Source of the DNA: Planctomycetaceae bacterium
Lineage (GTDB): Bacteria; Planctomycetota; Planctomycetia; Planctomycetales; Planctomycetaceae
DNA: 25,311 bases
Direction of reading: 5' to 3'
Assembly (NCBI GenBank): GCA_019636285.1
Contig: JAHBXV010000067.1
Span: forward strand, 1 to 25,311
The notes beneath the pieces were generated by a model that searched no databases, was not told the DNA's origin, and saw only the letters and a list, made by a program, of their open reading frames with translations. This document shows positions 1 through 21,161 of this stretch, piece after piece (the stretch's first letter is position 1; each line of letters opens with the position of its first letter). The position numbers were made by a program, and so were the translations under genes.

Positions 1-1
1 G

Positions 2-80
2 AGGCTATAGGCTTGAGAAAGAATTGACGCGTCGCGTCTGATTGATTTCCTGCAGCCTCCAGTCTCCGGCCTACAGCCTG
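2..80 (+). repeat. Imperfect long inverted repeat GAGGCTATAGGCTTGAG ... CGGCCTACAGCCTG enclosing the perfect palindrome GACGCG-T-CGCGTC. First member of the GAGGCT..AGGCTTGAGG spacer-repeat family of the tRNA array.
   Basis: About 14 of 17 positions pair, including G-U pairs valid only in plus-strand RNA. Related copies at 255-300 and 485-580. Confidence 0.4.
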
Positions 81-84
81 ACAA

Positions 85-158
85 GACGCGGTACGCAATT
101 GGCAAAGCGGCGAAGCTCAAACCTTCGTGGTTTGTGGGTTCGACTCCCACTCGCGTCA
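85..158 (+). tRNA. tRNA-like gene, anticodon CAA (Leu codon UUG) but class I architecture with a short 6-nt variable region
   Basis: 7-bp acceptor stem GACGCGG/TCGCGTC (one G-U pair). Anticodon arm is CGAAG-CTCAAAC-CTTCG. T-arm is GTGGG-TTCGACT-CCCAC with a canonical T-loop. Discriminator is A and no CCA is encoded. Hand-folded. Confidence 0.5.
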
Positions 159-165
159 CTGCATT

Positions 166-251
166 GGGTCGTGTTCCCAACGGCGGCCTGTAAAGCCGTT
201 GTCTCAAAACAAGTGGGGTGGAGACGAGAGGTTCAATTCCTTCACGACCTA
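166..251 (+). tRNA. tRNA-like element, 86 nt, with a Tyr-like CUGUAAA loop (GTA) but aberrant D-arm spacing; possible pseudo-tRNA
   Basis: 7-bp acceptor GGGTCGT/ACGACCT. T-arm ends ..GG-TTCAATT-CC... The hairpin GCGGC-CTGTAAA-GCCGT lies about 9 nt too close to the acceptor stem. The variable region is about 27 nt. Confidence 0.3.
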
Positions 252-412
252 TTTGGAGAGGCTTGAGACTTGAGGCCGCAGGCTTGAGGAGGGAAATTCT
301 TCGCGTCTCAGTCTTTCTCTCCGGCCGGACACGACCAGTCGGGCTGGGTAGAAAGTCCAAAAGGGACAGCCAGAGAAGACTTCTGCTCGCCGCTGGTTGC
401 TGGCGGCTTCAT

Positions 413-482
413 GGCAGGCTGGGCAGGTGTCCGACCGGCTTTCATATGGCCGGCATGCCCGGATCGTTACCGGGGCCTGCTA
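413..482 (+). tRNA. Degenerate tRNA-like element, anticodon CAT (Met/Ile2-like); probable pseudogene
   Basis: Acceptor GGCAGGC/GCCTGCT pairs. Anticodon arm is CGGCT-TTCATAT-GGCCG. T-stem is CCCGG/CCGGG but the T-loop ATCGTTA is non-canonical. The D-arm is too short. Confidence 0.3.
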
Positions 483-484
483 TT

Positions 485-580
485 GCGGAGGCTTTAGACG
501 GGAGGCTGTAGGCCTGAGGAAGAAAGAGCTGCGAGATGCGTTCTTCCTCAAGGCTCCGGTCTCACGCCTCAAGCCTGAAC
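485..580 (+). repeat. Nested hairpin spacer element of the GAGGCTTTAGAC / AGGCCTGAGGAAGAA ... TTCTTCCTCAAGGCT / CCTCAAGCCTG family
   Basis: Two nested inverted repeats read directly. The motif GGCTTGAGG or its complement CCTCAAGCC recurs at 10-17, 259-267, 281-289 and 566-577. Confidence 0.4.
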
Positions 581-582
581 AC

Positions 583-653
583 GGGCGGCTCGTCCAATGG
601 GAAGACACCTGGTTTGCACCCAGGAAATCGGGGTTCGGCTCCCCGGCCGGTCC
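583..653 (+). tRNA. tRNA-Ala(TGC)-like, with an acceptor mismatch and a G58 T-loop; possibly a pseudogene
   Basis: Acceptor GGGCGGC/GCCGGTC has one G-G mismatch. Anticodon arm is CCTGG-TTTGCAC-CCAGG. T-arm is CGGGG-TTCGGCT-CCCCG. There is no G3-U70 pair. Confidence 0.4.
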
Positions 654-660
654 ACTTGAG

Positions 661-748
661 TGGTCGATGGTTGAGCGTTGATGGTTGAGAGACAGACACG
701 AAGACTTTTCTTCTTGCCATCAACCATCGACGCTCGACCATCGACCTG
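661..748 (+). repeat. About 27-bp imperfect palindrome GGTCGATGGTTGAGCGTTGATGG ... CCATCAACCATCGACGCTCGACCATCGACC. A long RNA hairpin between the Ala-like tRNA and tRNA-Ser.
   Basis: The arms are near-perfect reverse complements. Mismatches are T in the 5' arm opposite G in the 3' arm. These form U-G pairs in plus-strand RNA but A-C on the other strand, so the structure is used as plus-strand RNA. Confidence 0.5.
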
Positions 749-751
749 ACT

Positions 752-839
752 GGAAGGTAGCCGGATACGGTTGGCCGGGCCGCACTGCTAACGCGGCTCT
801 CCCGCAAGGGAGATGAGGGTTCGAATCCCTTGCTTTCCG
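752..839 (+). tRNA. tRNA-Ser(GCT), class II
   Basis: Acceptor GGAAGGT/GCTTTCC. D-stem CCGG/CCGG. Anticodon arm CCGCA-CTGCTAA-CGCGG. Long variable arm CTCCC-GCAA-GGGAG. T-arm GAGGG-TTCGAAT-CCCTT. Discriminator G. Confidence 0.7.
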
Positions 840-954
840 CTTATTCAGCGATCAGCCACCAGCGATCAGCAATCAGCAAAAAAGAACAAATCAGTCGGCA
901 TCCGCTCGGTTTGTCACACTGACTGCTGATTCCTGTTCGCTAATGGCGACCAAC

Positions 955-1027
955 GGCCTGATGGTGAAATGGATCATCACACCCGGCTTCTAACCGGGGG
1001 GTCCGGGTTCGAATCCTGGTCGGGCCA
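955..1027 (+). tRNA. tRNA-Arg(TCT)
   Basis: Acceptor GGCCTGA/TCGGGCC. D-stem GTGA/TCAC. Anticodon arm CCCGG-CTTCTAA-CCGGG. T-arm CCGGG-TTCGAAT-CCTGG. Discriminator A. Confidence 0.75.
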
Positions 1028-1029
1028 TT

Positions 1030-1135
1030 GAAGAAGTCGTAAGTCTGGAGATAAGAGTCCAGAGCCAGAGAAAGGCAGGAAAGAGCGAACTTCCAGTCTG
1101 GCTCTCGACTCTGGACTCTCGTCTCTCGACTTTCC
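1030..1135 (+). repeat. Structured spacer GAGTCCAGAGCCAGAG ... CAGTCTGGCTCTCGACTCTGGACTCTCGTCTCTCGAC with CTCTCGAC direct repeats
   Basis: Complementary segments of 8-10 bp and short direct repeats, read directly. Lies between tRNA-Arg(TCT) and tRNA-Ser(GGA). Confidence 0.35.
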
Positions 1136-1222
1136 GGAAGGGCCTCCCGATGGGTGCCGGGCGCCGGGTGGAAACCGGTTGGGGGCGCAAGCCCCTTGCG
1201 GGTTCGACTCCCGCTCCTTCCG
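1136..1222 (+). tRNA. tRNA-Ser(GGA), class II
   Basis: Acceptor GGAAGGG/TCCTTCC. Anticodon arm GCCGG-GTGGAAA-CCGGT. Long variable arm GGGGGC-GCAA-GCCCC. T-arm GCGGG-TTCGACT-CCCGC. Discriminator G. Confidence 0.7.
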
Positions 1223-1224
1223 CT

Positions 1225-1300
1225 GTGGCCGGATCCGGTGTTGGTGACCGGAAGCAGACTGTGACTCTGCCTGACGGCGGTTCGATTCCGCTCGGCCACC
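1225..1300 (+). tRNA. tRNA-His(GTG); the genomic -1 position is T, so G-1 is not encoded
   Basis: Perfect 7-bp acceptor GTGGCCG/CGGCCAC. Anticodon arm GCAGA-CTGTGAC-TCTGC. T-arm GGCGG-TTCGATT-CCGCT. Discriminator C. Starts 3 nt after the preceding tRNA. Confidence 0.7.
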
Positions 1301-1301
1301 T

Positions 1302-1565
1302 TCAGACTCGGCGGATGCAAAGGTCCCAAATTCGGAGCGCGATGGTACCGCATGTGTTGATCAGCGGAACGATGCTCAATGCGCCGATGAGCACTCCCAG
1401 AAAATACGCAAAGAGAATGAACATCCATCCCCCAAATACAAGCAACAAGGCAATGGCCATACCTCCTTCGCCGACGTTAGCCCCGAAGAGCGTCCGCTGA
1501 AAGTAGGCATGAACCATCAGGCCGCCAAGCACTCCGCCGGATATTCGCAGTAAGAAGACGAGCAT
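1302..1565 (-). CDS. Small hydrophobic membrane protein (87 aa, about 2 TM helices), hypothetical
   Basis: ATG-initiated ORF with hydrophobic segments and a G-rich stretch upstream of the ATG. Its stop abuts the 3' end of tRNA-His (convergent). Confidence 0.45.
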   Translation of the reverse strand: MLVFLLRISGGVLGGLMVHAYFQRTLFGANVGEGGMAIALLLVFGGWMFILFAYFLGVLIGALSIVPLINTCGTIALRIWDLCIRRV

Positions 1566-1651
1566 TTGTCGTCCACCCCCCTTTTCCGGGTAGGCGTCGA
1601 CGGCCTCGAAGTATCACACGGATTTCCGGTGTACCCGGAAGGAATTTGACA

Positions 1652-2245
1652 ATGACCTCGCTCCTGCATCGACCAGCACTCGTTCTGAACCGCAACTGGC
1701 AGCCGGTGGGTGTCGCCACGGTGGCCCGCTCGTTGACGCTGGTGGTCGCCGAACGGGCGAGGATCGTCGATCCCACCGACTTCCAACAGTACACGTGGGC
1801 CGATTGGGCCAGGCTGATGCCCGCCGTGGATGAGCCGTTCGTCCAGTCGGTAACGTTTCGGGTTCGCGTGCCGGAGGTGATCACGCTGACCGACTACGAC
1901 CGCGTTCCCACGAACTCGGTCGCCTTCAGTCGGCGGAACATCTTCAAGCGCGATCGCTATACCTGCCAGTTCTGCGGCGAGCAGCCAGGGAGCGAGGAGC
2001 TGACGATCGACCACGTGCTACCCCGCTCGCGCGGCGGCACCAGCACTTGGGAGAACTGCGTTCTGGCCTGCGTGGACTGCAACAAGCGCAAGGCAGACCG
2101 CACACCAGCCGAAGCCCACATGCCGCTACGGAAGGCACCAGTCCGACCAAAGTGGCGGCCGCTCTATGCCCGGCACGACGCGCGCATTGAAAGCTGGTCC
2201 AAGTTCGTCAGCGAGACGTACTGGAATGTCGAGTTGGATGAATGA
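1652..2245 (+). CDS. HNH endonuclease family protein
   Basis: C-terminal HNH motif ...CQFCGE...LTIDHVLPRSRGG...ENCVLACVDCNKRK. ATG at 1652 is preceded by GGAAGG. The ORF track starts at an in-frame TTG at 1646. Confidence 0.85.
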   Translation: MTSLLHRPALVLNRNWQPVGVATVARSLTLVVAERARIVDPTDFQQYTWADWARLMPAVDEPFVQSVTFRVRVPEVITLTDYDRVPTNSVAFSRRNIFKRDRYTCQFCGEQPGSEELTIDHVLPRSRGGTSTWENCVLACVDCNKRKADRTPAEAHMPLRKAPVRPKWRPLYARHDARIESWSKFVSETYWNVELDE

Positions 2246-2250
2246 CAATC

Positions 2251-2285
2251 GCCGCCGAGTCCTTTTCGGATGGCTCGGCGGCTTT
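2251..2285 (+). terminator. GC-rich hairpin (9-bp stem GCCGCCGAG/CTCGGCGGC) followed by TTT, immediately 3' of the HNH gene and 5' of tRNA-Trp. Possible weak intrinsic terminator or processing stem.
   Basis: Inverted repeat read directly. The U-tract is short. Confidence 0.35.
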
Positions 2286-2287
2286 AC

Positions 2288-2357
2288 ACGAGCGAGCTCC
2301 TGGGAGAGCGGGTGGTCTCCAAAGCCGCTGGATGGGGTTCAAATCCTCACGCTCGTG
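2288..2357 (+). tRNA. tRNA-Trp(CCA)
   Basis: Acceptor ACGAGCG/CGCTCGT with an A1-U72 pair. Anticodon arm GTGGT-CTCCAAA-GCCGC. T-arm TGGGG-TTCAAAT-CCTCA. D-arm slightly irregular. Confidence 0.6.
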
Positions 2358-2363
2358 CTGACT

Positions 2364-2437
2364 GCCGACGTGGCTCGACTGAGAAAGGCGTCCGTCTTGT
2401 AAGCGGAAGCATGCTGGTGCGAATCCAGTCGTCGGCC
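2364..2437 (+). tRNA. tRNA-Thr(TGT)
   Basis: Acceptor GCCGACG/CGTCGGC. Anticodon arm TCCGT-CTTGTAA-GCGGA. T-arm GCTGG-TGCGAAT-CCAGT. D-arm poorly formed. Confidence 0.55.
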
Positions 2438-2443
2438 CTGATT

Positions 2444-2515
2444 GTCCCGATGGTGTAGCGGATTGCATTGGACTCTCCGAAGGTCCAGGCCCTGGTTCAA
2501 TTCCAGGTCGGGATA
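2444..2515 (+). tRNA. tRNA-Arg(CCG)
   Basis: Acceptor GTCCCGA/TCGGGAT. D-stem GTGT/GCAT. Anticodon arm GGACT-CTCCGAA-GGTCC. Perfect T-arm CCTGG-TTCAATT-CCAGG. Confidence 0.7.
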
Positions 2516-2524
2516 TTGAGTGAT

Positions 2525-2595
2525 GCCCTGCGGGTGTGGAGGACGCATGACTGCCTTCGAAGCAGTCGGGCGAGGTTCGATTCCTCGGTGGGGTA
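2525..2595 (+). tRNA. tRNA-Arg(TCG)
   Basis: Acceptor GCCCTGC/GTGGGGT with three G-U pairs. D-stem GTGT/GCAT. Anticodon arm ACTGC-CTTCGAA-GCAGT. T-arm CGAGG-TTCGATT-CCTCG. Confidence 0.6.
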
Positions 2596-2602
2596 CTGAT
2601 TC

Positions 2603-2673
2603 GTCCTTGGAGTGTGGTGGATGCACGCGACTCTGCGAAGGTCGTAGACCAGGTTCGACTCCTGGCAGGGACA
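2603..2673 (+). tRNA. tRNA-Arg(GCG)
   Basis: Acceptor GTCCTTG/CAGGGAC. D-stem GTGT/GCAC. Anticodon arm CGACT-CTGCGAA-GGTCG. T-arm CCAGG-TTCGACT-CCTGG. Confidence 0.65.
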
Positions 2674-2684
2674 CTGATCTTGAC

Positions 2685-2756
2685 GACGCTGAAGTCACAC
2701 GGCGTGGCGGCGGCCTGCAAAGCCGTTTTGAGTGGGTTCGACTCCCACCAGCGTCT
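2685..2756 (+). tRNA. tRNA-Cys(GCA) with U73 discriminator
   Basis: Acceptor GACGCTG/CAGCGTC. Anticodon arm GCGGC-CTGCAAA-GCCGT. T-arm GTGGG-TTCGACT-CCCAC. Discriminator T is consistent with Cys identity. Confidence 0.7.
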
Positions 2757-2862
2757 CATTGAATGGAAGGTCGTTGATGTTGTCTGTCCAGCGGCATGCA
2801 GGTCACCCGGCAGGGTTTGGCTCTGCCTGTTCCGTGAATGGGATCTGACCAGGGAACATCGA

Positions 2863-2937
2863 CGTTGGTTAGCTCAATGGCAGAGCACCAGATTCTGGAT
2901 CTGGAAGTTGCGGGTTCGACTCCCGTACCAACACCCA
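2863..2937 (+). tRNA. tRNA-Gln(CTG), 3' CCA encoded (2935-2937)
   Basis: Acceptor CGTTGGT/ACCAACA with a C1-A72 mismatch. The TA-GCTC-AATGGCA-GAGC D-arm is canonical. Anticodon arm CCAGA-TTCTGGA-TCTGG. T-arm GCGGG-TTCGACT-CCCGT. Confidence 0.65.
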
Positions 2938-3414
2938 CGAGCCGGATCGTACCCGGCACCAGCCTGTTAAGCTGGCGACGCTGCATAGCGTCTCACAATG
3001 CCTGAAGGAGGCAGACGTCCGTTTTGATCGGCTGGAGCATGTGCTCGGGCACACCAACGCTTCACGAAAGTGGAACCAAGGTGTTGCTCGCAGACCATGT
3101 TCCAGCAGCATGCGGCGACGCCTTGTAGTGCGTGGATACCGCGCTCAGCCGGCAACGGCTGAAGGGAACGGAAGCGACGACGTTCACCGGACGGGACTCC
3201 CTCGGGAGTTCGGAAAGGGAACGTCGAAGCGGAAGGACCTGGACACCGTTGCCAGCGGGCGCTCAAGCGCACTCCGCGATTCGTCCATGTGATCGGCGAA
3301 CGCTCTGCCTTCGGACGGTGTCTCTTGAGGATTCATCGCGGTACTAATGCCGCGTTTTGCTTTCGCTCGGTGCGAAGGCTGTCAGGCCGGGGCGAGACTC
3401 CGGGGAGGTGAAGG

Positions 3415-4521
3415 ATGTTTCTATTCAAGAAGTACAAAATTCGCAGCTACGAAATGGGACTCTTGTTCCGGGATGGAGAATTCCGGGGCCTGGTCGAGGC
3501 TGGAACCCGCTGGTTTTTCGACCCGCTCGGCAAGGTCCGCGTGGATATCGCGTCCCAGCGCGATCCGTGGCTGGTTCATGAGAAGCTCGACCTGATCGTC
3601 AAGTCGGGTGCGCTCGCCGAGCGCGCTGTCGTCCTGGACCTGAAGGATCACGAGCGGGCACTCGTCTGGATCGAGAACCGGTTCAGCCATGTTCTGCCAG
3701 CCGGCTTGTATGCCTACTGGACGGGACAGAAGGATGTCCGGGTTGAAGTGGTCGATGCCCGCATCGTGCGGTTCGAACATGCCGAGTTGAAGGTGATCGC
3801 CCGGTCGCCGCTGGCGCAGCGCGTCCTGGATGTCTGCACGGTCAACCGTGACCGGGTAGGCGTTCTGTTCATCGACGGTCGCTACATCGAGACGCTGACT
3901 CCGGGCCTGTACGCCTTCTGGAAGGGACAGTCCGAAGCCAAGGTCGTGGAGATCGACCTGCGGGAGACGATGGTCGACGTTGGCGGTCAGGACATCATGA
4001 CGGCCGACAAGGTGACGCTGCGGCTGAACGCCGTCGTGACTTACAAGATTGTCGATGCCCGTAAGGCGGTCAGCCAGACGGATGACGTCCGGCAGGCGCT
4101 CTACCGCGACACGCAGCTCGTCCTGCGGAGCGTGGTGGGGGCCCGTGAACTCGATGCCTTCCTGACGGAAAAAGATGCCGTCGCGACAGAGATCGAGGAG
4201 AGCGTTCGTCGTCGGGCGGGTGAGCTGGGCCTGGAAATCGCTTCGGTTGGTATCCGGGATGTGATCCTGCCGGGCGATATGAAGGATCTGATGAACAAGG
4301 TCACGGAGGCTCGCAAGGCGGCCGAGGCGAACCTGATCTCGCGTCGCGAGGAAACGGCTGCCATGCGGTCGCAGGCCAACACGGCCAAACTGCTGGCGGA
4401 CAACCCGACTCTCATGCGGCTGCGGGAGCTCGAAGTCCTGGAAAAGATCGCCTCGAACGGCAAGCTCAACATCGTCCTCGGCGACAAGGGCTTGGCCGAC
4501 AAGGTGGTCAACCTGTTGTGA
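3415..4521 (+). CDS. SPFH/band-7 (stomatin/prohibitin-like) domain protein, cytoplasmic, with a triplicated N-terminal beta-hairpin motif
   Basis: 368-aa ORF with the strong RBS GGGGAGGTGAAGG before the ATG. The C-terminal half is a typical SPFH core followed by a coiled-coil. The N-terminal 200 aa carry three tandem copies of ..LF.DG.....L.PGLYAFW.GQ....V..VD.R.. No TM segment. Confidence 0.85.
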   Translation: MFLFKKYKIRSYEMGLLFRDGEFRGLVEAGTRWFFDPLGKVRVDIASQRDPWLVHEKLDLIVKSGALAERAVVLDLKDHERALVWIENRFSHVLPAGLYAYWTGQKDVRVEVVDARIVRFEHAELKVIARSPLAQRVLDVCTVNRDRVGVLFIDGRYIETLTPGLYAFWKGQSEAKVVEIDLRETMVDVGGQDIMTADKVTLRLNAVVTYKIVDARKAVSQTDDVRQALYRDTQLVLRSVVGARELDAFLTEKDAVATEIEESVRRRAGELGLEIASVGIRDVILPGDMKDLMNKVTEARKAAEANLISRREETAAMRSQANTAKLLADNPTLMRLRELEVLEKIASNGKLNIVLGDKGLADKVVNLL

Positions 4522-4821
4522 CCGCGAATGATGCGACGGCACCCCATAACGCCTCTGGTTCGAGCCATCGGACCAGGGGTGTTTTCGTTTCTGCGGCACG
4601 GTGAGACCCGCAAGAGACCGTGCCGTTAACCACGAGGGCGGCGTTCAAGAGAGAGTCCGAGAGTTTCGGCGGGATGTCCGTGGGCACCTTGGCCAGACGC
4701 GGCATTTGTCCACGGTGCCCGTATCGCGATCTCCAACCCGAGAGACGCCGGAAGCTCTGGGCGGAACGCGCCGCCTTGACGCAAAGGCTTTTGCGGACAC
4801 GGGATTTGCGTCAGCACATAA

Positions 4822-4857
4822 TAAAACGCCGAGAGGCAAACCTCTCGGCGTTTCGCG
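4822..4857. terminator. Bidirectional rho-independent terminator AAAACGCCGAGAGG-CAAA-CCTCTCGGCGTTTCGCGTTT
   Basis: 11-bp GC-rich stem with A-tract upstream and T-tract downstream, read directly. Lies between the SPFH gene and the HTH ORF. Confidence 0.6.
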
Positions 4858-4990
4858 TTTACCAGCGGGGAACGGATTTCCGTTCCTGTAAAAAAGGCTC
4901 CCCGTGCAAGGCACTTCCGGTTCCTTTCGGGGAAAAGTCCTGCGGCTTGAAAACCGCTACTACCACACGGTTTACGTCGACCGCGTGCGG

Positions 4991-5473
4991 ATGTACGTTC
5001 CGGGCCGATCTCCCGAGCCGCAGCGTAAGACGAACGTCCGGCGGTCACGGCTCCGGATTCGGGCGGACTATGCCCCGGTCCGGAACGTCATTGCGATTGC
5101 CCGTCAGTACGAGGCGTATTTGAAGGAACCGGGCATCTACACCTACCGGCAGGCGGCCGAGCACTTCAGCACTTCAAAGGTGACGGTGGGTTATCACCTG
5201 GCCTTACTGACTCGGTTGCCCGCCGATTTTGTGGCGTGGCTGGAAGGCTGCACCGAGGATTTGCCGATGACCTTCTTCAGCCTGCGGAGACTTCGACCCG
5301 TGACCATGATGCCAGAGCCGGAAAGGAAGGCTGCTCTGCTGGAACTGGCCCGGACACTGGTCCGGGAAATGGAAGGCCAGCCCTCCGAGGCCGTGCCCGA
5401 ACTGCTGTGGATGCTGGACGAAGAGCTTCACCAGATGCCACGACGTCTGCTCCGGTCGATCATGCTGGACTGA
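4991..5473 (+). CDS. Hypothetical protein with a predicted helix-turn-helix (..TYRQAAEHFSTSKVTVGYHLALL..)
   Basis: 189-aa ORF from GTG 4904, or 160 aa from ATG 4991. The start is uncertain. Convergent with abiEii. Confidence 0.4.
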   Translation: MYVPGRSPEPQRKTNVRRSRLRIRADYAPVRNVIAIARQYEAYLKEPGIYTYRQAAEHFSTSKVTVGYHLALLTRLPADFVAWLEGCTEDLPMTFFSLRRLRPVTMMPEPERKAALLELARTLVREMEGQPSEAVPELLWMLDEELHQMPRRLLRSIMLD

Positions 5474-5521
5474 CCGGACAATCTCAGGGAGAAGAGCGCT
5501 GCCCCTGGGGAGGTCCAATGA

Positions 5522-6448
5522 TCATTCCGACGTTAATTGCCACGGCCCGGATGGACGCCAGGTCAAGGCGAACTCCTGGCCCGTAGCGAGTGCTGCTGCC
5601 AGTGGTCCCAAGAACTGCCCGAGGGCCTCGACAACGACGTGGAATTCGGCGGGGGCGATCTCCAGTCGCGACTTTCGCACGAATCCCTTCCACTGCGTCT
5701 GTTTGATCGGATCGTTCGCGAAGGCGGCGGTCAGCGCGATTGGGACCGCACTCATGGCGGTCTTGCGATTCTCAAATGTTCTCGTGACTGCCTCAGACAA
5801 CAAACGGCCGTCGAATTCAAACTGCCGCGACAAGAGCCATAGATCGAAGAAGTCCTTCAGACGGCTGTTGAGTTGCCCGAGCTTGACCATTGCCTCGAAC
5901 TTCTCGGCGACCACGGTCTCCCTGGGGTACGCGCGGAGTCGGGGCTGGGCATGGTCCAGGATCGTGGGGTAGTCGGCGAACGCGGCTTCGGGCACGACCG
6001 TGTCACCGAACCCGATGTCAATCTGCATGGGAACACGGGCATTTTCCAGGGACGCCTGAAAGGTGACTCGCACACCCGAGTAGTCCGCGTCTTCCTTGAT
6101 TTGTTGCCCTGCCACGGTCTCGACGGCAAACACCAATCCATCCGGCTCGACCGCGCGCTGACAGACATCGCGAAATACCGGGACGAGGGCATCCACGCTG
6201 TTGTTGAGCCGGCCCAGCAGGTCAATATCGCGTGTCGGACGGGAAGACAGCGCACCCCACAGGTTGAACAGGAGCGCTCCTTTGAGGATGAACCGCTCGG
6301 CATGTGGCGACTGCGACAGACGGTACAGGAATCTCTCCATCGCGAAGTATTGGAGCACTTCCTGAAAGGGACGCCCCGAGGCTACGGCCGAATTCATCAG
6401 CCGCTGGCGAACTGAGGCTGCGACGTTTTTGAGAGGCCGCTCGGTCAC
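5522..6448 (-). CDS. abiEii: AbiEii/AbiGii-family nucleotidyltransferase toxin (type IV toxin-antitoxin / abortive-infection)
   Basis: N-terminal signature ASVRQRLMNSAVASGRPFQEVLQYFAMERFLYRLSQS...ILKGALLF...RPTRDIDLL. The GTG start at 6448 overlaps the upstream stop as GTGA. An alternative ATG lies at 6397. The ORF-track extension to 7150 is an Arg/Pro-rich artefact. Confidence 0.8.
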   Translation of the reverse strand: MTERPLKNVAASVRQRLMNSAVASGRPFQEVLQYFAMERFLYRLSQSPHAERFILKGALLFNLWGALSSRPTRDIDLLGRLNNSVDALVPVFRDVCQRAVEPDGLVFAVETVAGQQIKEDADYSGVRVTFQASLENARVPMQIDIGFGDTVVPEAAFADYPTILDHAQPRLRAYPRETVVAEKFEAMVKLGQLNSRLKDFFDLWLLSRQFEFDGRLLSEAVTRTFENRKTAMSAVPIALTAAFANDPIKQTQWKGFVRKSRLEIAPAEFHVVVEALGQFLGPLAAALATGQEFALTWRPSGPWQLTSE

Positions 6449-7071
6449 AGCACGGCCTCCAGATAAGGCTGGATGACTCGCTTCACCCGACAGATTCCCG
6501 CGTAATGAAGGAGCGACTCGACGTTGACGCGGCCTTGGCGGCGGTATGCCTTGAGCGCCTCCAGCACGGTGTCGAGGCCGATCCGATTCCGGTGTTTGAA
6601 GCAGTCCGCCAGCGTTTTTTCGCGGCTGTAGATACGAACGGGGACTCCGTCGACCGTGTGTGTTTCGATCCCTTCCGAATAGGCGGGGCCGCTGAACCAG
6701 AAATGCCGCACCGGCGGATAGGACAGCCGAGGCGGTTCTGCCCCTCGGGGAATGGCGACGCAGATTTCGTGGGGGATTTGGGTGGTGAGTTCGTGCCAGG
6801 CGAGCGCCGAGATCAGGCAAAGCACCCCGTTGGGAATTCTGAGAGCGACGGTGACCAGGTCTGGATTGCCAAGCGACGGAGCGTCCGCGAGTCGGTACAG
6901 CCCCCGACTGAGCAGTTCGATCCGACCCGAATCGCGGAGAGCGTACAGAGTCCGGGGATGGATACCGGCCTCCAGAGCATCGCGCGTGCGGAGCATCCCC
7001 CCGAGGGCGCGGAAATGGTCCAGCGCCGCCGAGATCGGTCGGGGTTCTTCGGGAGGGTGTTCGACGCTCAT
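6445..7071 (-). CDS. abiEi: AbiEi-family antitoxin / transcriptional regulator (winged-HTH N-domain plus C-terminal domain)
   Basis: 208-aa ORF. LRTRDALEAGIHPRTLYALRDSGRIELLSRGLYRL is a winged HTH. Positioned immediately upstream of, and overlapping, the nucleotidyltransferase toxin. Confidence 0.85.
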   Translation of the reverse strand: MSVEHPPEEPRPISAALDHFRALGGMLRTRDALEAGIHPRTLYALRDSGRIELLSRGLYRLADAPSLGNPDLVTVALRIPNGVLCLISALAWHELTTQIPHEICVAIPRGAEPPRLSYPPVRHFWFSGPAYSEGIETHTVDGVPVRIYSREKTLADCFKHRNRIGLDTVLEALKAYRRQGRVNVESLLHYAGICRVKRVIQPYLEAVL

Positions 7072-7078
7072 GTGGATA

Positions 7079-7084
7079 AATATA
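7079..7084 (-). promoter_or_regulatory. Candidate -10 hexamer TATATT located 7 nt upstream of the abiEi ATG, implying a leaderless or near-leaderless transcript. A weak -35 CTGGCA lies 18 nt upstream, next to the direct repeat ACGCC-ACGCC.
   Basis: Read from the reverse complement of 7072-7130. No SD sequence lies between the hexamer and the ATG. Confidence 0.3.
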
Positions 7085-7569
7085 CCAGCACGGCGTGGCG
7101 TGTGCCAGTTTTTCTATCCAGGCGAGGCAGTTTTGGTAGAGGGCCAACACGGATGGGGGCTCGGCTTCCGAATGCCACGATGGACGGTGGCGGCAAGGCC
7201 ATGCGGCAAAACCGCTACAGCCGGACCGGAGATCGTGAGGGCCAACTCCCCGTAGGGCAGATTGGGATTCTCAGGGGCGGCCTCCGGGGTGCAAAAATGA
7301 GATCGACCCTCATTTACCCGCGAATTGCCGAGTCTATCACGATGAAGAACCTGTTTCAGCCCCTGTCGCTGCCGATCCTGGCGAAGCCGAGCGCCCAAGA
7401 GGTTTGTTGAAATCGCCCGTCGAGGCCTATCGCTCCGCCACGACTAACGATGTTCAGAAACGTCTCGTGGACATCCTTGATCCTCCGGAGTTACACCGGA
7501 TACAGCCCGGTGAGTGTGCGATAGGACCGAGTGAAGCTGCTTACAATCGCTCAGCAAACAACGCTTCAC

Positions 7570-10500
7570 TTACTGTTTGTGGATTGTCGTGGCAGCTTCT
7601 TCGACCATGACCGGGGATGGATTCAGTGTTGGATCGCTGGTTGGTTGCGATCCGGCCAACGGCGTCGGCATACCGGCTGATATCGGATTTGAAGGCGGTT
7701 GAATTCCGTCGGAGTGGGGCTGCTTATGTTCGTAAACCTTGCGGCCAAACTTGAAGAACAATGCAGGCGTGACGACTTGGTCGAGGATCGTCGACGTGAG
7801 CATTCCGCCGAAGACAACCAACGCCAGCGGATACAGAATCTCCTTGCCAGTCTGGCCTGCTCCGAACAGCAGTGGCAAGAGGCCGATGAAACTGGTCATC
7901 GCGGTCATCATCACGGGGGCGAGGCGTTCCAGGCTGCCACGCACGATCATCTGTTCGGAGAAGGCTTCACCTTCATGCTGCATCAGGTGAATGTAGTGTG
8001 TGATCATCATGATGCCGTTGCGACTCACGACGCCGATGAGCGTGATGAAGCCAACCCAGTGCGCGACGGACAGACTGGTGGCACTGACCCACACACGGGG
8101 CCAGTCCCACCAGGGGGCGGCTTGCAATGCGGACCACTCGGGGCGATTGACGATCAACAGCGTCAGCACCGAACCGAATGCAGCGAGAGGGATGTTGACT
8201 AGGACTTGTACAGCGGCCCTCCACGAATCGAGCGCTTTGCAGAGCAGCAGGAAGACCCCAAGGATGCTGAGCGTGCCGAGTATTGCCAAGCGGCGGTTGG
8301 CTTGCTGCTGGGCCTCAAACTGTCCGCTGAATTCGACGTAGTAGCTGCCGGGAAGTTGTTGGAGACTCTCTTCAACAGGGGCGACAGCCGCCTTGATATC
8401 CCTCACCACACTGGCGAGGTCACGCCCCTGCACGTTGCAGAAGACAACGATCCGACGTTGGACATTCTCGCGGTTGAGCGTGTTCGGGCCGGTGGTGTCC
8501 AGCACTTCCGCGACTTGTCCCAGCGCAACGCGGCGGCCGGAGGGAGTCTCCAGAATCGTCTCATTGATGGTTTCGGGATCGCTGCGCGAGGCTTCGTCGT
8601 ACCAGACGACGAGTCCAAAATAGCGGTCTTCGTCTAGCACTTGCGAGACGACTTGCCCCCGGTAGGCCGTCTCCAACAGATCCGCGACATCGCCCGGAGC
8701 GAGTCCGTAGCGGGCGGCCTCGTCACGCTTGACTCGCAGGCGAATCTGCGAAATCTCGATCTGCGGCTCGATCTGCAAATCGACGATGCCAGGGATCGTC
8801 TGCATTCGCTCCTGCATGTTGCTGGCGGCGGTCCGCAACTCGCGCAGGTCTTGCCCGAAAATCTTCACGGCGATCTGGGCGCGGATGCCCGACATCATGT
8901 GGTCCAGTCGGTGCGAGATCGGCTGACCGATATTGACCGCCGCGCCGGGGATGTTTGAGATGCGGTCGCGCACGTCGGCGATCACCTCGGCGCGCGGACG
9001 CCCCACGGAATCGAAACCCCACAAATGGACGATCGGGATCAGCCGCAGGGCCGCATAACCCCAGCCAGATTTCGGCGGATGGTGTTCGGCGAGTCGTACA
9101 TCGATCTCGGACGAATTGACTCCCTCGGCGTGTTCGTCCAGTTCCGCCCGACCTGTTCGGCGAGAGACCGACAACACTTCGGGAACATCGAGGATCAACC
9201 CCTCGGCGCGTGCGGCGATGCGCTGGCTTTCGTCGAGGCTCGTCCCCGGTTCCATACGCAGGCTGATTGTCAACGTCCCTTCATTGAATGGCGGCAGAAA
9301 CTCGCCGCCCATCCACAGGATGCTGGCACAGGAGAGCGTAACCAAAACGGCGACACCACTCAGAACCAGCGTTGCGTGACGTAACGTGAACCTCAATACC
9401 ATCTCATCCAGTCGCTTGAGCCAGCGAAGGACCAGCGGGTCGGCTCCTTCGTCCAGCAACTTGGCTTTCGACAGCAGTACCGAACCGAATGCGGGAGTGA
9501 AGGTCAGTGACACGACTAGCGAACAGAGCAGAGCGGTGATGTAGGCTACGCCCAGCGGAGCGAACATACGGCCTTCCAACCCGGCCATCGAAAACAACGG
9601 GAACATGACCAGAATGACAATCAGTGTGGCATAGACAATCGAATTGCGCACTTCGCACGAGGCGTCGTAGATCACGTCCAAAGGTGAACGCTGCTGGCTA
9701 ACTGGCAGGTGCCGATTTTCCTTCAAACGGCGATAGATGTTCTCGATGTCGACGATGGAATCGTCCACCAGATCGCCGATCGCCACCGCGATGCCTCCCA
9801 GCGTCATCGTGTTGATCGTGATGCCAAACCAGTGGAACACCAGAATCGTGAGCAGGATCGACAGTGGCATCGACGTGAGCGAACTGACGCTCGTGCGGAA
9901 ATTGCCCATCATCAGGAACAGGATGACGACCACCCACAAGGCCCCGTCACGCACCGCTTCGGTGACGTTTTCCACGGCGGCTGCGATGAAGTCGGCCTGC
10001 TTGAAGATGCGACGCTCGATGACGACATCGGGCGGCAATTCTTTCTGCAACGATTCCAGAACGTCGTCGATCATGCGGTCCAAAGCCAGCGTGTCGGCGT
10101 TGGGTTGTTTCTGCACCGTGATGATGACGGCCGGGCCACCGCTGACTTTTGTTGTCGCATGTACCTCTTCGGGCTGGTCGCCGCCGTCATGCCCATGGGC
10201 TGCCGGTACCGGAGTGTGCGGATGGGGCGACTGCTCGTCGTGACTCCCGTTCGAGTGTCCGTCCTCGCCGTGACTTTCGTCGTGTGCAGAGGAGTCTGGA
10301 TGTTCGTGCGGCAGTGATTCGCGAACGGCAGCGTTCACATCGGGTTCGAGCTTCACCCACGCGCTGCCATCTCCCCGTTTGACCGGCCCGCCGAAGCGGA
10401 CTTCGGCCACGTCCTTGATCCGGACCGGCATCGGGTCACGCCACAGAACGGGCGTGTTTTCAATCTCCTCCAGCGTGAGGCTCTGCCCATTGATGCGTAA

Positions 10501-11211
10501 CAGAGACTCTTTCGGTGAGCGGACTACGATGCCACCACCGGCGATCACGTTCGCCTTCTTCGCGGCCGTGACAAGTTGTTCCAGCGTCACGTTCTGAGCG
10601 GCCAACCGCGCTGGGGACGTGACGATCTGATACTGTTTGAAGATCCCGCCCATGACCGTGACCTGCGACACGCCACCCACTGCCAACAGCCGGTTCCGCA
10701 GCGTGAACTCTCCCAGCGTGCGTAGCTCCATCGCCTTGGCGTTTTGTTCTTCGGGGGTCTTCAACTCCGCGCTGGAGCGCAGGCCGAGCAACATGATCTC
10801 GCCCATGATCGACGAGATCGGTGCCATCACCGGATTCGTTCCTGCGGGCAGTCGCTCGCGGGCGAGTTGCAACTTCTCGGACACAATTTGCCGGTCGCGA
10901 AAGATGTCGGTGCCCCAATCGAACTCGACCCACACGATCGACAGTCCGATTCCCGATGCCGACCGGACTCGTTTCACGTCGGTTGCGCCGTTCAGCAGGA
11001 ACTCAAGAGGTCGGGTGACCAGCACCTCGACCTCTTCGGGGGCCAGACCAGTGGCTTCGGTCATGATTGTGACCGTCGGGCGGTTCAAATCCGGAAACAC
11101 ATCGACTGGCATCTCGCGCAGCTGGATGGCTCCCAATACCATGACGACGAGCGCCCCGATCAACACCAGGGCTCGGTTTTTCAGCGAGAAGGAAATGATT
11201 CCATTCAGCAT
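7570..11211 (-). CDS. Heavy-metal efflux RND transporter, CusA/CzcA (HME) family, with a His-rich periplasmic insertion
   Basis: Starts MLNGIISFSLKNRALVLIGALVVMVLG (ATG 11211). 12-TM RND architecture with the HME-type TM4 segment VAIGDLVDDSIVDIENI. The roughly 50-aa His/Asp/Glu-rich segment HEHPDSSAHDESHGEDGHSNGSHDEQSPHPHTPVPAAHGHDGG maps to 10162-10311. Confidence 0.9.
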   Translation of the reverse strand: MLNGIISFSLKNRALVLIGALVVMVLGAIQLREMPVDVFPDLNRPTVTIMTEATGLAPEEVEVLVTRPLEFLLNGATDVKRVRSASGIGLSIVWVEFDWGTDIFRDRQIVSEKLQLARERLPAGTNPVMAPISSIMGEIMLLGLRSSAELKTPEEQNAKAMELRTLGEFTLRNRLLAVGGVSQVTVMGGIFKQYQIVTSPARLAAQNVTLEQLVTAAKKANVIAGGGIVVRSPKESLLRINGQSLTLEEIENTPVLWRDPMPVRIKDVAEVRFGGPVKRGDGSAWVKLEPDVNAAVRESLPHEHPDSSAHDESHGEDGHSNGSHDEQSPHPHTPVPAAHGHDGGDQPEEVHATTKVSGGPAVIITVQKQPNADTLALDRMIDDVLESLQKELPPDVVIERRIFKQADFIAAAVENVTEAVRDGALWVVVILFLMMGNFRTSVSSLTSMPLSILLTILVFHWFGITINTMTLGGIAVAIGDLVDDSIVDIENIYRRLKENRHLPVSQQRSPLDVIYDASCEVRNSIVYATLIVILVMFPLFSMAGLEGRMFAPLGVAYITALLCSLVVSLTFTPAFGSVLLSKAKLLDEGADPLVLRWLKRLDEMVLRFTLRHATLVLSGVAVLVTLSCASILWMGGEFLPPFNEGTLTISLRMEPGTSLDESQRIAARAEGLILDVPEVLSVSRRTGRAELDEHAEGVNSSEIDVRLAEHHPPKSGWGYAALRLIPIVHLWGFDSVGRPRAEVIADVRDRISNIPGAAVNIGQPISHRLDHMMSGIRAQIAVKIFGQDLRELRTAASNMQERMQTIPGIVDLQIEPQIEISQIRLRVKRDEAARYGLAPGDVADLLETAYRGQVVSQVLDEDRYFGLVVWYDEASRSDPETINETILETPSGRRVALGQVAEVLDTTGPNTLNRENVQRRIVVFCNVQGRDLASVVRDIKAAVAPVEESLQQLPGSYYVEFSGQFEAQQQANRRLAILGTLSILGVFLLLCKALDSWRAAVQVLVNIPLAAFGSVLTLLIVNRPEWSALQAAPWWDWPRVWVSATSLSVAHWVGFITLIGVVSRNGIMMITHYIHLMQHEGEAFSEQMIVRGSLERLAPVMMTAMTSFIGLLPLLFGAGQTGKEILYPLALVVFGGMLTSTILDQVVTPALFFKFGRKVYEHKQPHSDGIQPPSNPISAGMPTPLAGSQPTSDPTLNPSPVMVEEAATTIHKQ

Positions 11212-11227
11212 GACGAACTTTCTGGCA

Positions 11228-13420: not shown

Positions 13421-13467
13421 AATCGAGCTTCCTGTCAGCGCTGCGTTCCTATTGTCATGTGGAAATG

Positions 13468-20337: not shown

Positions 20338-20600
20338 ATGTACGACCGGGATACGAAGTTTACGAATGCGTTTGATGCGATCTTCGACCAGGAGGGAGCG
20401 GAAGGAGAACAGACGGCATTTCGGTCGCCGAGCACCAACGCTTTCGTTGAGCGGTTCATCCAGACATTGCAGCAGGAAGTCCTGGATCACTTCGTCGTTT
20501 TCGGTGAGCAGCACATGGACCACTTGGTGTCGGAAACCGTCGAGCACTACCACGATGAGAGGCCACTCCAGTCATTGGGGAATGAGCCACCGGTGAATCG
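20338..20600 (+). pseudogene. Truncated remnant of a DDE transposase/integrase (C-terminal about 85 aa of an rve-type core: [10 protein letters not shown]...[22 protein letters not shown]...[16 protein letters not shown])
   Basis: The reading frame has no upstream continuation, so the N-terminal catalytic region is absent. Opposite orientation to the surrounding operon. The tandem repeat CGGTTAAGCG-CGGTTAAGCG lies at 20664-20683. Confidence 0.55.
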
Positions 20601-20819
20601 CCAGACGACGGAAACCCCAGACAGCGATACCGACGAGACCAAGCTGCGGATCGTCCGCCGCGAGCGGTTAAGCGCGGTTAAGCGGGTGGCTCAATCGCTA
20701 TTCCTTGAGAGCGGCATGAGTTCTCCGTCGTACGTTTATTGGCAGTGGGAAGCCATGGTGCGGAACGCAGCTGTGCATCCAGGTACTGGTCTGCTTCCTC
20801 GGATGATCCGAGATGGTCG

Positions 20820-21161
20820 TCAGATGGCTTTCGGGCCAAACGCCAGCCAGAGTCCAATGGCCATACTTGCCAACAGCAGTCCCAACCCGATTGCCGACCA
20901 GAAGTCGAGATTGAGTCGCTCGGCGAACGCGAGCGGCACAAAGAAGGGCAGGCCGAGGGGAACGAGGATCAGCGTTTCTCGCGCCATGGTCGAGAGACTT
21001 TTCAGGTCGTGATCGCGAAACCAGGCAGCTCCGAAGGCGAGAATGCTGACCAGCGGTAGACTCAGCAGCAACGCCCCGGCCCTGGGCATCCGGCGGGAGA
21101 GTTCAGAGACGGCCAGGATGATGCACCCCGGCACGACGACGCGGAGCACGAATGACACCAT
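20820..21161 (-). CDS. Small integral membrane protein (about 113 aa, 3-4 TM), hypothetical
   Basis: Hydrophobic ORF. ATG 21161 has GAGGA about 13 nt upstream. An alternative upstream ATG lies at 21206. Confidence 0.5.

Follow-up and report, generated by a model that had tools for sequence, protein, structure and literature searches.

The start of a Planctomycetaceae contig probably holds the distal part of a widespread accessory tRNA array with linked HNH and SPFH genes

The comparisons reported here concern a stretch of 25,311 nucleotides from a Planctomycetaceae bacterium (contig JAHBXV010000067.1 of assembly GCA_019636285.1, positions 1 to 25,311 of the forward strand; this whole stretch is called the window), at the start of which tRNA genes are densely arrayed on one strand around a gene for an HNH endonuclease. 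We consider it likely that these genes are the distal part of a patchy, widespread accessory module of the L-array type with a backup-decoding role, and we hold with slightly more assurance that the region is the distal third of a partly eroded accessory L-type array with a linked HNH gene, which is a known kind of array. L-arrays comprise up to 43 genes, are supernumerary, spread by horizontal gene transfer and have an HNH gene linked to them (PMC8421152), and Planctomycetes are among the phyla listed as carrying them (PMC8421152; PMC4758250). That the array functions as a stress-inducible backup decoding set is plausible by analogy, and we put it forward tentatively. In the literature searched we found no description of the phylum-wide architecture in which array, HNH gene and SPFH gene are combined, of the rule-breaking tRNAs, of the heptamer hairpins, of the terminal unit with a free anticodon loop, or of the leader, all of which are set out below.

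ARAGORN called 14 tRNA genes, all on the plus strand and all within positions 85–2937 (Table 1): Leu-CAA, Met-CAT, Ala-TGC, Ser-GCT, Arg-TCT, Ser-GGA and His-GTG before the HNH gene, and Trp-CCA, Thr-TGT, Arg-CCG, Arg-TCG, Arg-GCG, Cys-GCA and Gln-CTG after it. Nine of the 14 reach the gathering score when Rfam models are run over the whole window, and 13 are recovered with relaxed Rfam filters on positions 1–3400, the sole miss being Met-CAT. A 15th unit, Tyr(GTA)-like and not called by ARAGORN, matches the Rfam tRNA-Sec model over positions 167–249. A first-pass annotation of this DNA had proposed a dense, very tightly packed same-strand array of about 15 units within positions 1–2940, and had staked this on automated detection finding more than five genes; the 14 ARAGORN calls together with the Tyr-like unit bear it out, as do the spacers of 4–10 nt in the second half. 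The density of 15 units in 2.94 kb (5 per kb) is a lower bound, the window starting inside the array. Spacers between tRNAs measure 1–114 nt, excepting the HNH segment and a gap of 252 nt that holds the uncalled Tyr-like unit. No CCA is encoded in the array tRNAs; the terminal unit, read as Gln-CTG, does encode one. No terminator-like site was found inside the window array, a site at 26–38 being the apex of the hairpin that forms the first spacer. Since this first spacer is truncated at the window start, the array continues upstream, which the first-pass annotation had missed, as it had missed the hairpin spacers altogether. Its 15 genes are consequently not the whole array, of which the window holds only the 3' third out of about 43 genes, and its impression of a bias towards minor isoacceptors arose because the cut leaves only the array's last third: the full set decodes all 20 amino acids.

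The full array is known from relatives. Related loci (designated L plus a number) were sampled through the HNH protein, an alignment scan with one genome per species giving 80 loci, and ARAGORN was run on 83 distinct loci. Thirty-eight have at least five tRNA genes around the HNH gene and 22 have at least 20, the maximum being 43 (L018). Gene order is strongly kept, 763 adjacent tRNA pairs fitting the reference order and 68 not (92% conserved). In 28 of 36 arrays the HNH gene directly follows tRNA-His, and in 30 of 34 tRNA-Trp comes directly after it. The reference order runs Phe-GAA, Glu-TTC, Pro-GGG, Pro-TGG, Ile-GAT, Lys-TTT, Ile-TAT, Lys-CTT, Thr-CGT, Gly-GCC, Pro-CGG, Asn, Ser-CGA, Gly-TCC, Gln-TTG, Gln-CTG, Ser-TGA, Ala-TGC, Val-TAC, Leu-TAA, Leu-TAG, Asp, Leu-CAA, Tyr, Glu-CTC, Leu-CAG, Met, Met, Leu-GAG, Val-GAC, Thr-GGT, Ala-CGC, Ala-GGC, Ser-GCT, Arg-TCT, Ser-GGA, Arg-CCT, His, the HNH gene, Trp, Thr-TGT, Arg-CCG, Arg-TCG, Arg-GCG and Cys. 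All 20 amino acids are represented in it, the four-codon boxes having anticodons with G34, U34 and C34. The window array joins this order at Leu-CAA and, compared with its close relatives L008–L010, is without Glu-CTC, Leu-CAG, the second Met, Leu-GAG, Val-GAC, Thr-GGT, Ala-GGC and Arg-CCT. A tRNA array unit has been defined as at least 20 tRNA genes at no fewer than two per kb (Tran et al. 2016, PMC4758250). Twenty-two related loci of the reference order have 20–43 genes; the window genes have a single orientation, spacing fit for co-transcription and a linked HNH gene of the all8564 type, and the family is sporadically distributed. One fixed gene order in dozens of genomes, complete ones (OY970273.1 and CAVPPL010000005.1) among them, makes comparative analysis feasible.

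The complete arrays of the relatives are preceded by a conserved leader, examples of which lie upstream of tRNA-Phe at L036 6690–6867, L040 6470–6647 and L092 6485–6662. At least 21 arrays have a conserved intrinsic terminator (GCCCGGTGTCAC-loop-GACACCGGGC-T5-8) before the first tRNA, at a distance of 3–110 nt (156 nt in the exceptional L032), and in several arrays the gap is only 3–4 nt, too short to hold a promoter. A small open reading frame (ORF) was found in 19 loci, and in 18 of these it ends in TGA-C at a near-constant distance of 60–72 nt upstream of where the T-run ends; it has 32–33 codons in 13 of these 18, three longer versions align end to end, and the predicted peptide follows the pattern M.S.R.S..FAGQPAN.LP..PLRL*. 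When transcripts truncated before the terminator 3' arm were folded for 13 loci, the terminator 5' arm paired with an upstream segment in every one (10–12 of 12 nt), and this anti-terminator segment, the strand of which reads UGACNCCGGC, has the UGA as its first triplet in 12 of them and begins 5 nt downstream of it in L003. The leader has no match in Rfam. We regard the alternative pairings predicted by folding as well supported and translation of the ORF, as judged from its conservation, as moderately supported. The layout appears to be that of ribosome-mediated attenuation, a plausible translation-sensing switch by analogy with known attenuators: a ribosome that reaches the leader stop codon would mask the anti-terminator, leading to termination and keeping the array off, and slowed translation would allow the anti-terminator to form, leading to read-through and turning the array on. 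Such a switch would fit what is known from Anabaena, where translational stress induces the L-array, albeit by a different mechanism, via the repressor TrcR. If true, the leader would be a cis-acting device tying array expression to translation speed; no prior report of leader-peptide control of tRNA operons was found in the literature searched. Separately, L003 (Planctomyces sp. SH-PL14) carries at 6383–10594 a remnant with Glu, Gln, Glu, Leu-CAG, Met and Leu-GAG, behind which come an EF-Tu gene and, after it, Arg-TCG, an ORF, His and the HNH gene; it still has the conserved terminator before its first tRNA.

On the evidence of the relatives, the array is probably accessory and not a core operon. 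The HNH gene occurs without any tRNA gene within 10 kb in 34 of the 83 loci, and close sisters differ, L018 having 43 tRNAs and L012 none. Two sister arrays are present in each of three genomes (L040/L050, L030/L032 and L036/L047), and two further pairs of loci (L053/L054 and L038/L064) each represent a genome with an array-linked HNH copy and a distant array-free paralog. Moreover, His, Trp, Cys or Tyr is missing from various arrays, which would be lethal were the arrays the sole source of these tRNAs, and canonical stand-alone copies with strongly different sequences lie near arrays (Ser-GCT in L074, Arg-TCG in L028, Asn-GTT in L008 and Leu-CAA in L033). The opposing view, that we are looking at a vertically inherited core tRNA operon holding the only copies of its isoacceptors in an unusual Planctomycetota genome organisation, can draw on the coverage of all 20 amino acids, on the synteny of the HNH and SPFH flanks across families and on an array guanine-plus-cytosine (GC) content equal to that of its surroundings. 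Considering the tRNA-free HNH loci, the duplication of arrays within genomes, the missing isoacceptors and the divergent canonical copies of the same anticodons, together with the structural idiosyncrasy of the array tRNAs, we judge a core operon very improbable.

Several points nevertheless weigh against an accessory backup array. Its supernumerary status is deduced from relatives and not from the genome of the source organism. Array-linked and array-free HNH copies interleave in the HNH tree, a pattern that an ancient, vertically inherited module lost many times (as the core-operon view would have it) could produce too, without frequent transfer. The island features that the first-pass annotation had suggested looking for did not turn up in the window, which has no integrase and no att or other repeats flanking the array; nor is there a GC shift, GC content being 0.57–0.62 throughout. 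Further, the window starts inside the array, the leader being seen in relatives only, and in 9 of 15 loci frame +2 of the leader ORF is also open, third-position variability being only slightly raised.

The first-pass annotation had also taken the array to be of a type carried by phages and mobile islands. We retain the part of this claim that concerns an accessory, horizontally spreading, HNH-linked array, and drop the part that would require phage genes, an integrase or flanking repeats in the window. A phage-derived cluster, that is (pro)phage cargo serving codon usage or defence evasion with an HNH gene that homes in the manner of T4 SegB, would account for the same-order arrays found on IMG/VR contigs, of which L092 lies near a terminase (8 kb away) and L093 near serine recombinase and ParB-like genes. 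In agreement, HNH homologs at 27–50% identity accompany arrays of further orders on viral contigs, and both phage tRNA clusters and SegB are known from the literature. Against this, the 25-kb window contains no phage gene, most arrays sit in ordinary chromosomal contexts, and the HNH protein, with its invariant N-terminal domain, is far more conserved than would be expected of a cycling selfish endonuclease and occurs array-free. A phage origin was also sought by DNA similarity and rejected, megablast of positions 1–8000 against 50,697 phage records giving no match. We therefore hold a phage-derived cluster to be improbable, if somewhat less so than a core operon, and continue to prefer an accessory module. 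On the viral-labelled contig L093, a Ro60/TROVE (RNA quality-control) gene at 11233–12891 lies directly downstream of the planctomycete-order array.

The HNH gene that had been noted in the first pass is intact, is confirmed with Pfam and lies free-standing between tRNA-His and tRNA-Trp; the accompanying idea that it splits the array as an intruder does not hold, the gene being a fixed and conserved component at this position. Its protein consists of a conserved N-terminal domain of about 95 residues followed by a Cas9/IscB-like HNH core, and the nuclease core (beta-beta-alpha-metal) is present in the window protein. Homologs number in the thousands, the best 120 being 69–93% identical and from Planctomycetota; identity across the phylum is 64–93%, and the nearest relative of the window copy is 93% identical. 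An alignment of 23 HNH proteins has 73 invariant columns, many of them within the N-terminal 95 residues. Homing endonucleases with selfish dynamics are sporadic, degenerate and sit inserted in a target gene or intron, a description that does not apply here, and array-free paralogs of the HNH gene also exist. Judging from its sequence conservation, the protein is far too conserved for a typical cycling homing endonuclease, and that label is probably too simple. As a candidate component of a known defence system it was rejected, since the PADLOC match runs via the generic core only (best PtuB, E = 1e-9). A second HNH clade, about 50% identical and labelled Planctomycetota (proteins P0121–P0240; L094–L096 from IMG/VR), accompanies arrays of 35–38 tRNAs in a different conserved order with the HNH gene at the 3' end.

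Between tRNA-His and the HNH gene the window has a lineage-specific insert. The gap from His to Trp is 653–683 nt in 22 of the 31 arrays with called His and Trp flanks, corresponding to the 594-nt HNH gene plus about 65 nt, and is 987 nt in the window. The minus-strand ORF within the insert had been annotated as a small membrane-protein gene, a proposal we abandon: neither Pfam nor NCBIfam matches it, about 120 related loci hold no homolog of it, its GC content at third codon positions is 0.65 vs 0.71–0.81 in real genes, and as a gene it is unsupported. Elsewhere, coding inserts of 1.0–1.5 kb occupy the Ser-GGA/His junction in L053 (9000–10000) and L014 (2040–3090), a junction that measures 1 nt in the window.

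Four units of the window array had been called defective in the first pass. For Ala-TGC this is right, as comparison with 21 orthologs identifies a 1-nt insertion at the junction of T-stem and acceptor stem and an A58G change, both derived. The other three, Leu-CAA, Met-CAT and the Tyr-like unit, are on the evidence of compensatory covariation among their homologs conserved non-canonical tRNA types under structural selection and not products of decay. Leu tRNAs of class-I length are usual in this family (median 74–77 nt for CAA, GAG, TAA and TAG, only Leu-CAG having 84 nt), and within the Leu-CAA group A73 is kept and compensatory double changes occur at 16 of 21 pairs in 22 sequences. Met-CAT 'type A' has a 3-bp D-stem, a 4-nt D-loop and the T-loop ATCGTTA, with 10 of 21 pairs covarying; in complete arrays it is adjoined by a second Met type with a 1:72 mismatch. 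The Tyr-like unit combines an 8-bp acceptor stem with a GUA anticodon hairpin and a T-arm, the D-arm being replaced by a 6-bp long-range helix around the anticodon arm. Its lack of a D-arm, which sets it apart from ARAGORN-detectable Tyr genes, had made it a candidate pseudogene, an interpretation overturned by homologs of 81–88% identity located directly after Leu-CAA in five loci (L045, L046, L053, L062 and L077), 8 of 25 pairs being compensatory in six sequences. These tRNAs, which break class rules, bear on substrate recognition by leucyl- and tyrosyl-tRNA synthetases and on resistance to tRNA-cleaving toxins, and they have a consequence for annotation in that conserved members of such arrays escape standard tRNA finders.

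The 3' end of the array is also conserved in structure. The spacer after tRNA-Cys is 74–92% identical in L007, L008, L010, L029 and L051, with 9 of 32 pairs compensatory in six sequences, and has no match in Rfam. It leads to a terminal tRNA-like unit that is present in 15 loci (including L007 4107–4180, L092 11245–11314, L051 2222–2294 and L040 11421–11489), in which conservation comes close to 100% in the D-arm, anticodon stem and T-arm but the 7-nt anticodon loop is hypervariable: it differs in almost every lineage (11 distinct loops in 13), U33 is often missing, and the anticodon readings include CTG, GAG, GTG, ATG, AAT, TTG, ACA, TGG, ATC and ACC. The acceptor stem is often broken, being near-intact only in the window, L007 and L029; the window unit has a C1xA72 mismatch beside its encoded CCA. 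Since the structure is kept without a fixed anticodon, this suggests a role other than decoding, one possibility being that it marks where the array transcript is to be processed away from the SPFH mRNA. A match of the loop to the heptamers of its own locus was considered and rejected, the mean being 5.0 of 7 to the own locus vs 5.13 to other loci. A tRNA-shaped element with a freely varying anticodon loop is in itself a testable lead. Downstream follows, on the same strand, a gene for an SPFH/Band-7 protein, found at this place with 70–94% identity in 14 genome loci and the viral contig L092 (94% between window and L007), the linkage holding for both copies of a duplicated array. The protein has an N-terminal extension of about 140 residues without an assigned family, and no PADLOC model corresponds to it. 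Short conserved blocks 5' of the SPFH gene (window ~3120–3171 and ~3260–3326) recur in several loci.

In the first half of the window array, tRNA genes are separated by hairpins of 85–114 nt, four of them strong (z-scores of −3.4 to −10.5), the arms of which are tandem 7-nt repeats with a heptamer that changes from one hairpin to the next; in the hairpin at 662–746 the arms extend over 27 nt and are 93% complementary. A hairpin class was defined by energy per nucleotide and lag-7 periodicity, other finders having been set aside (a seed-based one missed the window's own hairpins, an ungapped one was too strict and plain RNAfold gave 1249 candidates). By this definition, 37 hairpins lie inside arrays in 121 kb (0.31 per kb) and 10 outside in 1,139 kb (0.009 per kb), a 35-fold enrichment in array spacers; 18 loci carry them, 4 of the 10 outside arrays adjoin an HNH gene or array end, and most of the others resemble false positives in GC-rich coding DNA. 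The same junction may hold unrelated hairpins in different lineages and a spacer of 4–20 nt in others, and one array has in two of its spacers hairpins that are 86% identical to each other. Purines make up 66% of the 5' arm, which gives the hairpins a common orientation. A role as RNA-level structures on the tRNA strand is not supported, since stability shows no strand asymmetry (with the plus strand the more stable one in 24 of 45, and G:U making up 6% of pairs) and since hairpin 1041–1132 and its L007 ortholog, 91% identical, differ by substitutions that are mostly in the 5' arm and uncompensated. Nor are hairpins a general L-array feature: neither the Nostoc nor the Acidiphilium array has them, and nor does any of the viral-contig arrays, planctomycete-order ones included. 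Hairpin ends do not have in common an attC (R''/R' GTTRRRY) or REP-type terminal motif, and neither the window nor the flanks examined yielded an integron integrase or HUH transposase. The hairpins may be insertions, or duplications by fold-back, that turn over fast and are specific to array spacers; a role in processing or insulation, an origin as by-products of HNH-induced breaks and small mobile palindromes are the candidate explanations. Heptameric or palindromic spacers in tRNA arrays were not found described in the literature searched, and heptamer-built palindromes that arise almost only between tRNA genes offer a lead for study.

These hairpins bear on a further alternative, namely that the window copy is a decaying, non-functional relic in which the hairpins are junk palindromes left by slippage or fold-back repair. 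Such a reading could point to the hairpins sitting where tRNAs were lost, to their lack of strand asymmetry and of compensation between orthologs, to the insert of about 350 nt before the HNH gene, to the derived defects of Ala-TGC and to the roughly eight tRNAs missing relative to L008–L010. It is opposed by HNH and SPFH genes that are intact and closely similar to those of relatives, by at least 11 tRNAs that keep good scores and by the covarying structures retained in the unusual units, and we think a mere relic unlikely. In the preferred reading of an accessory backup array, the same changes would make the window copy partly eroded, with about eight tRNAs lost, Ala-TGC damaged and spacers widened by heptamer hairpins.

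Considering how such an array could work, the complete module comprises, in order, the leader, some 37 tRNA genes (Phe to His), the HNH gene, a further six tRNA genes (Trp to Cys), the structured spacer with its terminal tRNA-like unit, and the SPFH gene. By what is established of bacterial tRNA maturation, the array would be transcribed as one long precursor, in which RNase P would make the 5' ends and, because the array tRNAs encode no CCA, RNase Z the 3' ends, the CCA-adding enzyme completing the tRNAs; the HNH mRNA would be freed by the cuts at its flanking tRNAs. The product would be a second, nearly complete decoding set, of use once translation or the pool of housekeeping tRNAs is compromised. 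The first-pass annotation had put forward codon-usage buffering or the replacement of cleaved tRNAs as candidate roles. In agreement, the HNH gene of Anabaena is co-induced with the L-array under translational stress (PMC8421152). A more elaborate version, an emergency decoding system in which a ribosome-sensing attenuator controls some 43 unorthodox tRNAs that evade toxins and in which HNH gene, SPFH gene and hairpins are all functional, is as a whole doubtful. Under it, the odd shapes (the Leu of class-I length, the Tyr-like unit without a D-arm and the Met with a mini-D-loop) might evade AbiEii/MenT-type enzymes or nucleases, and the HNH protein, the SPFH protein and the hairpins might serve, for example, maintenance, processing or insulation.

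Table 1. Features of the window from its start to the AbiE genes
Feature	Position	Strand	Evidence or remark
Hairpin spacer, GAGGCTN heptamers, cut by window start	1–84	+	z = −2.0; L007 arms 96% identical over 28 nt
tRNA-Leu(CAA), short variable arm, A73	85–159	+	ARAGORN; Rfam 49.7 bits
Non-canonical Tyr(GUA)-like unit	166–251	+	Rfam tRNA-Sec model, 27 bits; homologs in five loci
Degenerate spacer in position of Glu-CTC and Leu-CAG, with weak GAGGCTT-heptamer hairpin at ~255–322; no tRNA remnant detected	252–411	+	
tRNA-Met(CAT) 'type A'	412–483	+	ARAGORN; missed by Rfam
Heptamer hairpin in position of second Met, Leu-GAG, Val-GAC and Thr-GGT	489–576		z = −3.4; lag-7 identity 0.55
tRNA-Ala(TGC), G3:U70, two derived defects	583–655	+	ARAGORN; Rfam 41 bits
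Heptamer hairpin, GGTCGAT/GGTTGAG units, in position of Ala-GGC	662–746		z = −10.5; lag-7 identity 0.58
tRNA-Ser(GCT)	752–840	+	ARAGORN; Rfam tRNA-Sec model, 38.3 bits, below gathering score of 47
Heptamer hairpin, GCGATCA units	848–947		z = −5.2; same junction 4–23 nt in most relatives
tRNA-Arg(TCT)	955–1027	+	ARAGORN; Rfam 63 bits
Heptamer hairpin, GAGTCNA units	1041–1132		z = −4.2; ortholog L007 1721–1819
tRNA-Ser(GGA)	1137–1223	+	ARAGORN and Rfam
tRNA-His(GTG), minor type with 5-bp D-stem common to L029	1225–1300	+	ARAGORN; Rfam with relaxed filters
Lineage-specific insert between His and HNH, ~350 nt	1301–1651		87-codon ORF inside at 1302–1565 (−)
HNH protein, 197 amino acids	1652–2245	+	Pfam HNH/HNH_5, E ~1e-14
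Six packed tRNAs: Trp-CCA, Thr-TGT, Arg-CCG, Arg-TCG, Arg-GCG, Cys-GCA	2288–2757	+	Spacers 4–10 nt
Conserved structured spacer, 105 nt, from Cys to terminal unit	2758–2862	+	Identity and covariation
Terminal tRNA-like unit, reads Gln-CTG here	2863–2937	+	ARAGORN; Rfam 62 bits
SPFH/Band-7 protein	3415–4521	+	Pfam Band_7, E = 1e-27
AbiEii toxin	~5522–6440	−	PADLOC, E = 1e-112
AbiEi antitoxin	6445–7071	−	Pfam AbiEi_4

Beyond the array module, the window consists of ordinary bacterial DNA. The Abi toxin–antitoxin pair that the first-pass annotation had placed downstream was recovered as AbiEii and AbiEi by PADLOC and Pfam; it is a neighbour and not a constant part of the module. AbiE-type genes lie near arrays in three loci, namely the window (5522–7071, minus strand), L007 (4585–5386, of different subfamilies) and L093 (19701–20408). 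Nucleotidyltransferases of the AbiEii/MenT family can inactivate the acceptor ends of tRNAs, and by this analogy the linkage of AbiE genes and arrays could be meaningful. Further downstream are a heavy-metal cluster with a CusA-like RND pump, a CusB-like fusion protein and a copper P-type ATPase with YHS/HMBD domains, a truncated rve_3 transposase fragment and a second RND pump, the spans of this cluster and its neighbours being 7570–16092 (−), 20338–21012 (+) and 21809–25246 (−). The array neighbourhood thus looks variable, which suggests an island-like setting.

Finally, parts of the module resemble systems known from elsewhere. The heptamer spacers recall the STRR heptanucleotide tandem repeats of cyanobacteria, 7-nt units in non-coding DNA that were reportedly described by Mazel and colleagues in 1990, and one hairpin, in L038, is built of (TTGGTCA)n, the unit of cyanobacterial STRR2. 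The likeness consists in tandem 7-nt units in non-coding DNA; the planctomycete repeats differ in that they form the two complementary arms of a hairpin, vary from hairpin to hairpin and keep to the spacers of tRNA arrays. The leader has the short ORF, the anti-terminator at the ORF end and the terminator before the regulated genes that characterize the trpL, hisL and pheL attenuators (PMC3082878). Whereas those regulate genes of amino-acid biosynthesis, the putative planctomycete attenuator precedes tRNAs, its ORF has no run of one regulatory codon (14–18 different amino acids in 32–39 codons), and its predicted anti-terminator begins at the stop codon itself. The tRNA clusters of mycobacteria and phages (Morgado & Vicente 2018, PMC5966550; for T4 SegB, PMC2330249) are likewise dense, associated with a nuclease gene and located on mobile DNA, but T4 SegB is a GIY-YIG enzyme, and the planctomycete HNH protein is conserved throughout the phylum, occurs also array-free and in the window has no phage context.

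The closest likeness is to the L-arrays, such as the trn operon of Anabaena PCC 7120 with all8564, long same-strand arrays of patchy distribution that are supernumerary, as the planctomycete ones probably also are, carry an HNH gene of the same family and are found on plasmids, mobile elements or chromosomes. In tblastn comparisons, the window HNH protein is 33–40% identical, over 80–99% of its length, to the HNH genes at the Nostoc and Acidiphilium arrays, one homolog lying directly upstream of the Nostoc array of 24 tRNAs and another inside the array of 37 tRNAs on an Acidiphilium plasmid; the tRNA order of both arrays is unrelated to the planctomycete order. To our knowledge, the Anabaena array is the only long tRNA array for which functional data exist. 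Its control, by promoter direct repeats bound by the repressor TrcR, differs from the predicted terminator/anti-terminator leader of the planctomycete arrays. Further, the HNH gene lies upstream of the known L-array of Anabaena/Nostoc and inside the planctomycete arrays, between His and Trp, and unlike the known L-arrays the planctomycete ones have in the SPFH gene a constant partner.

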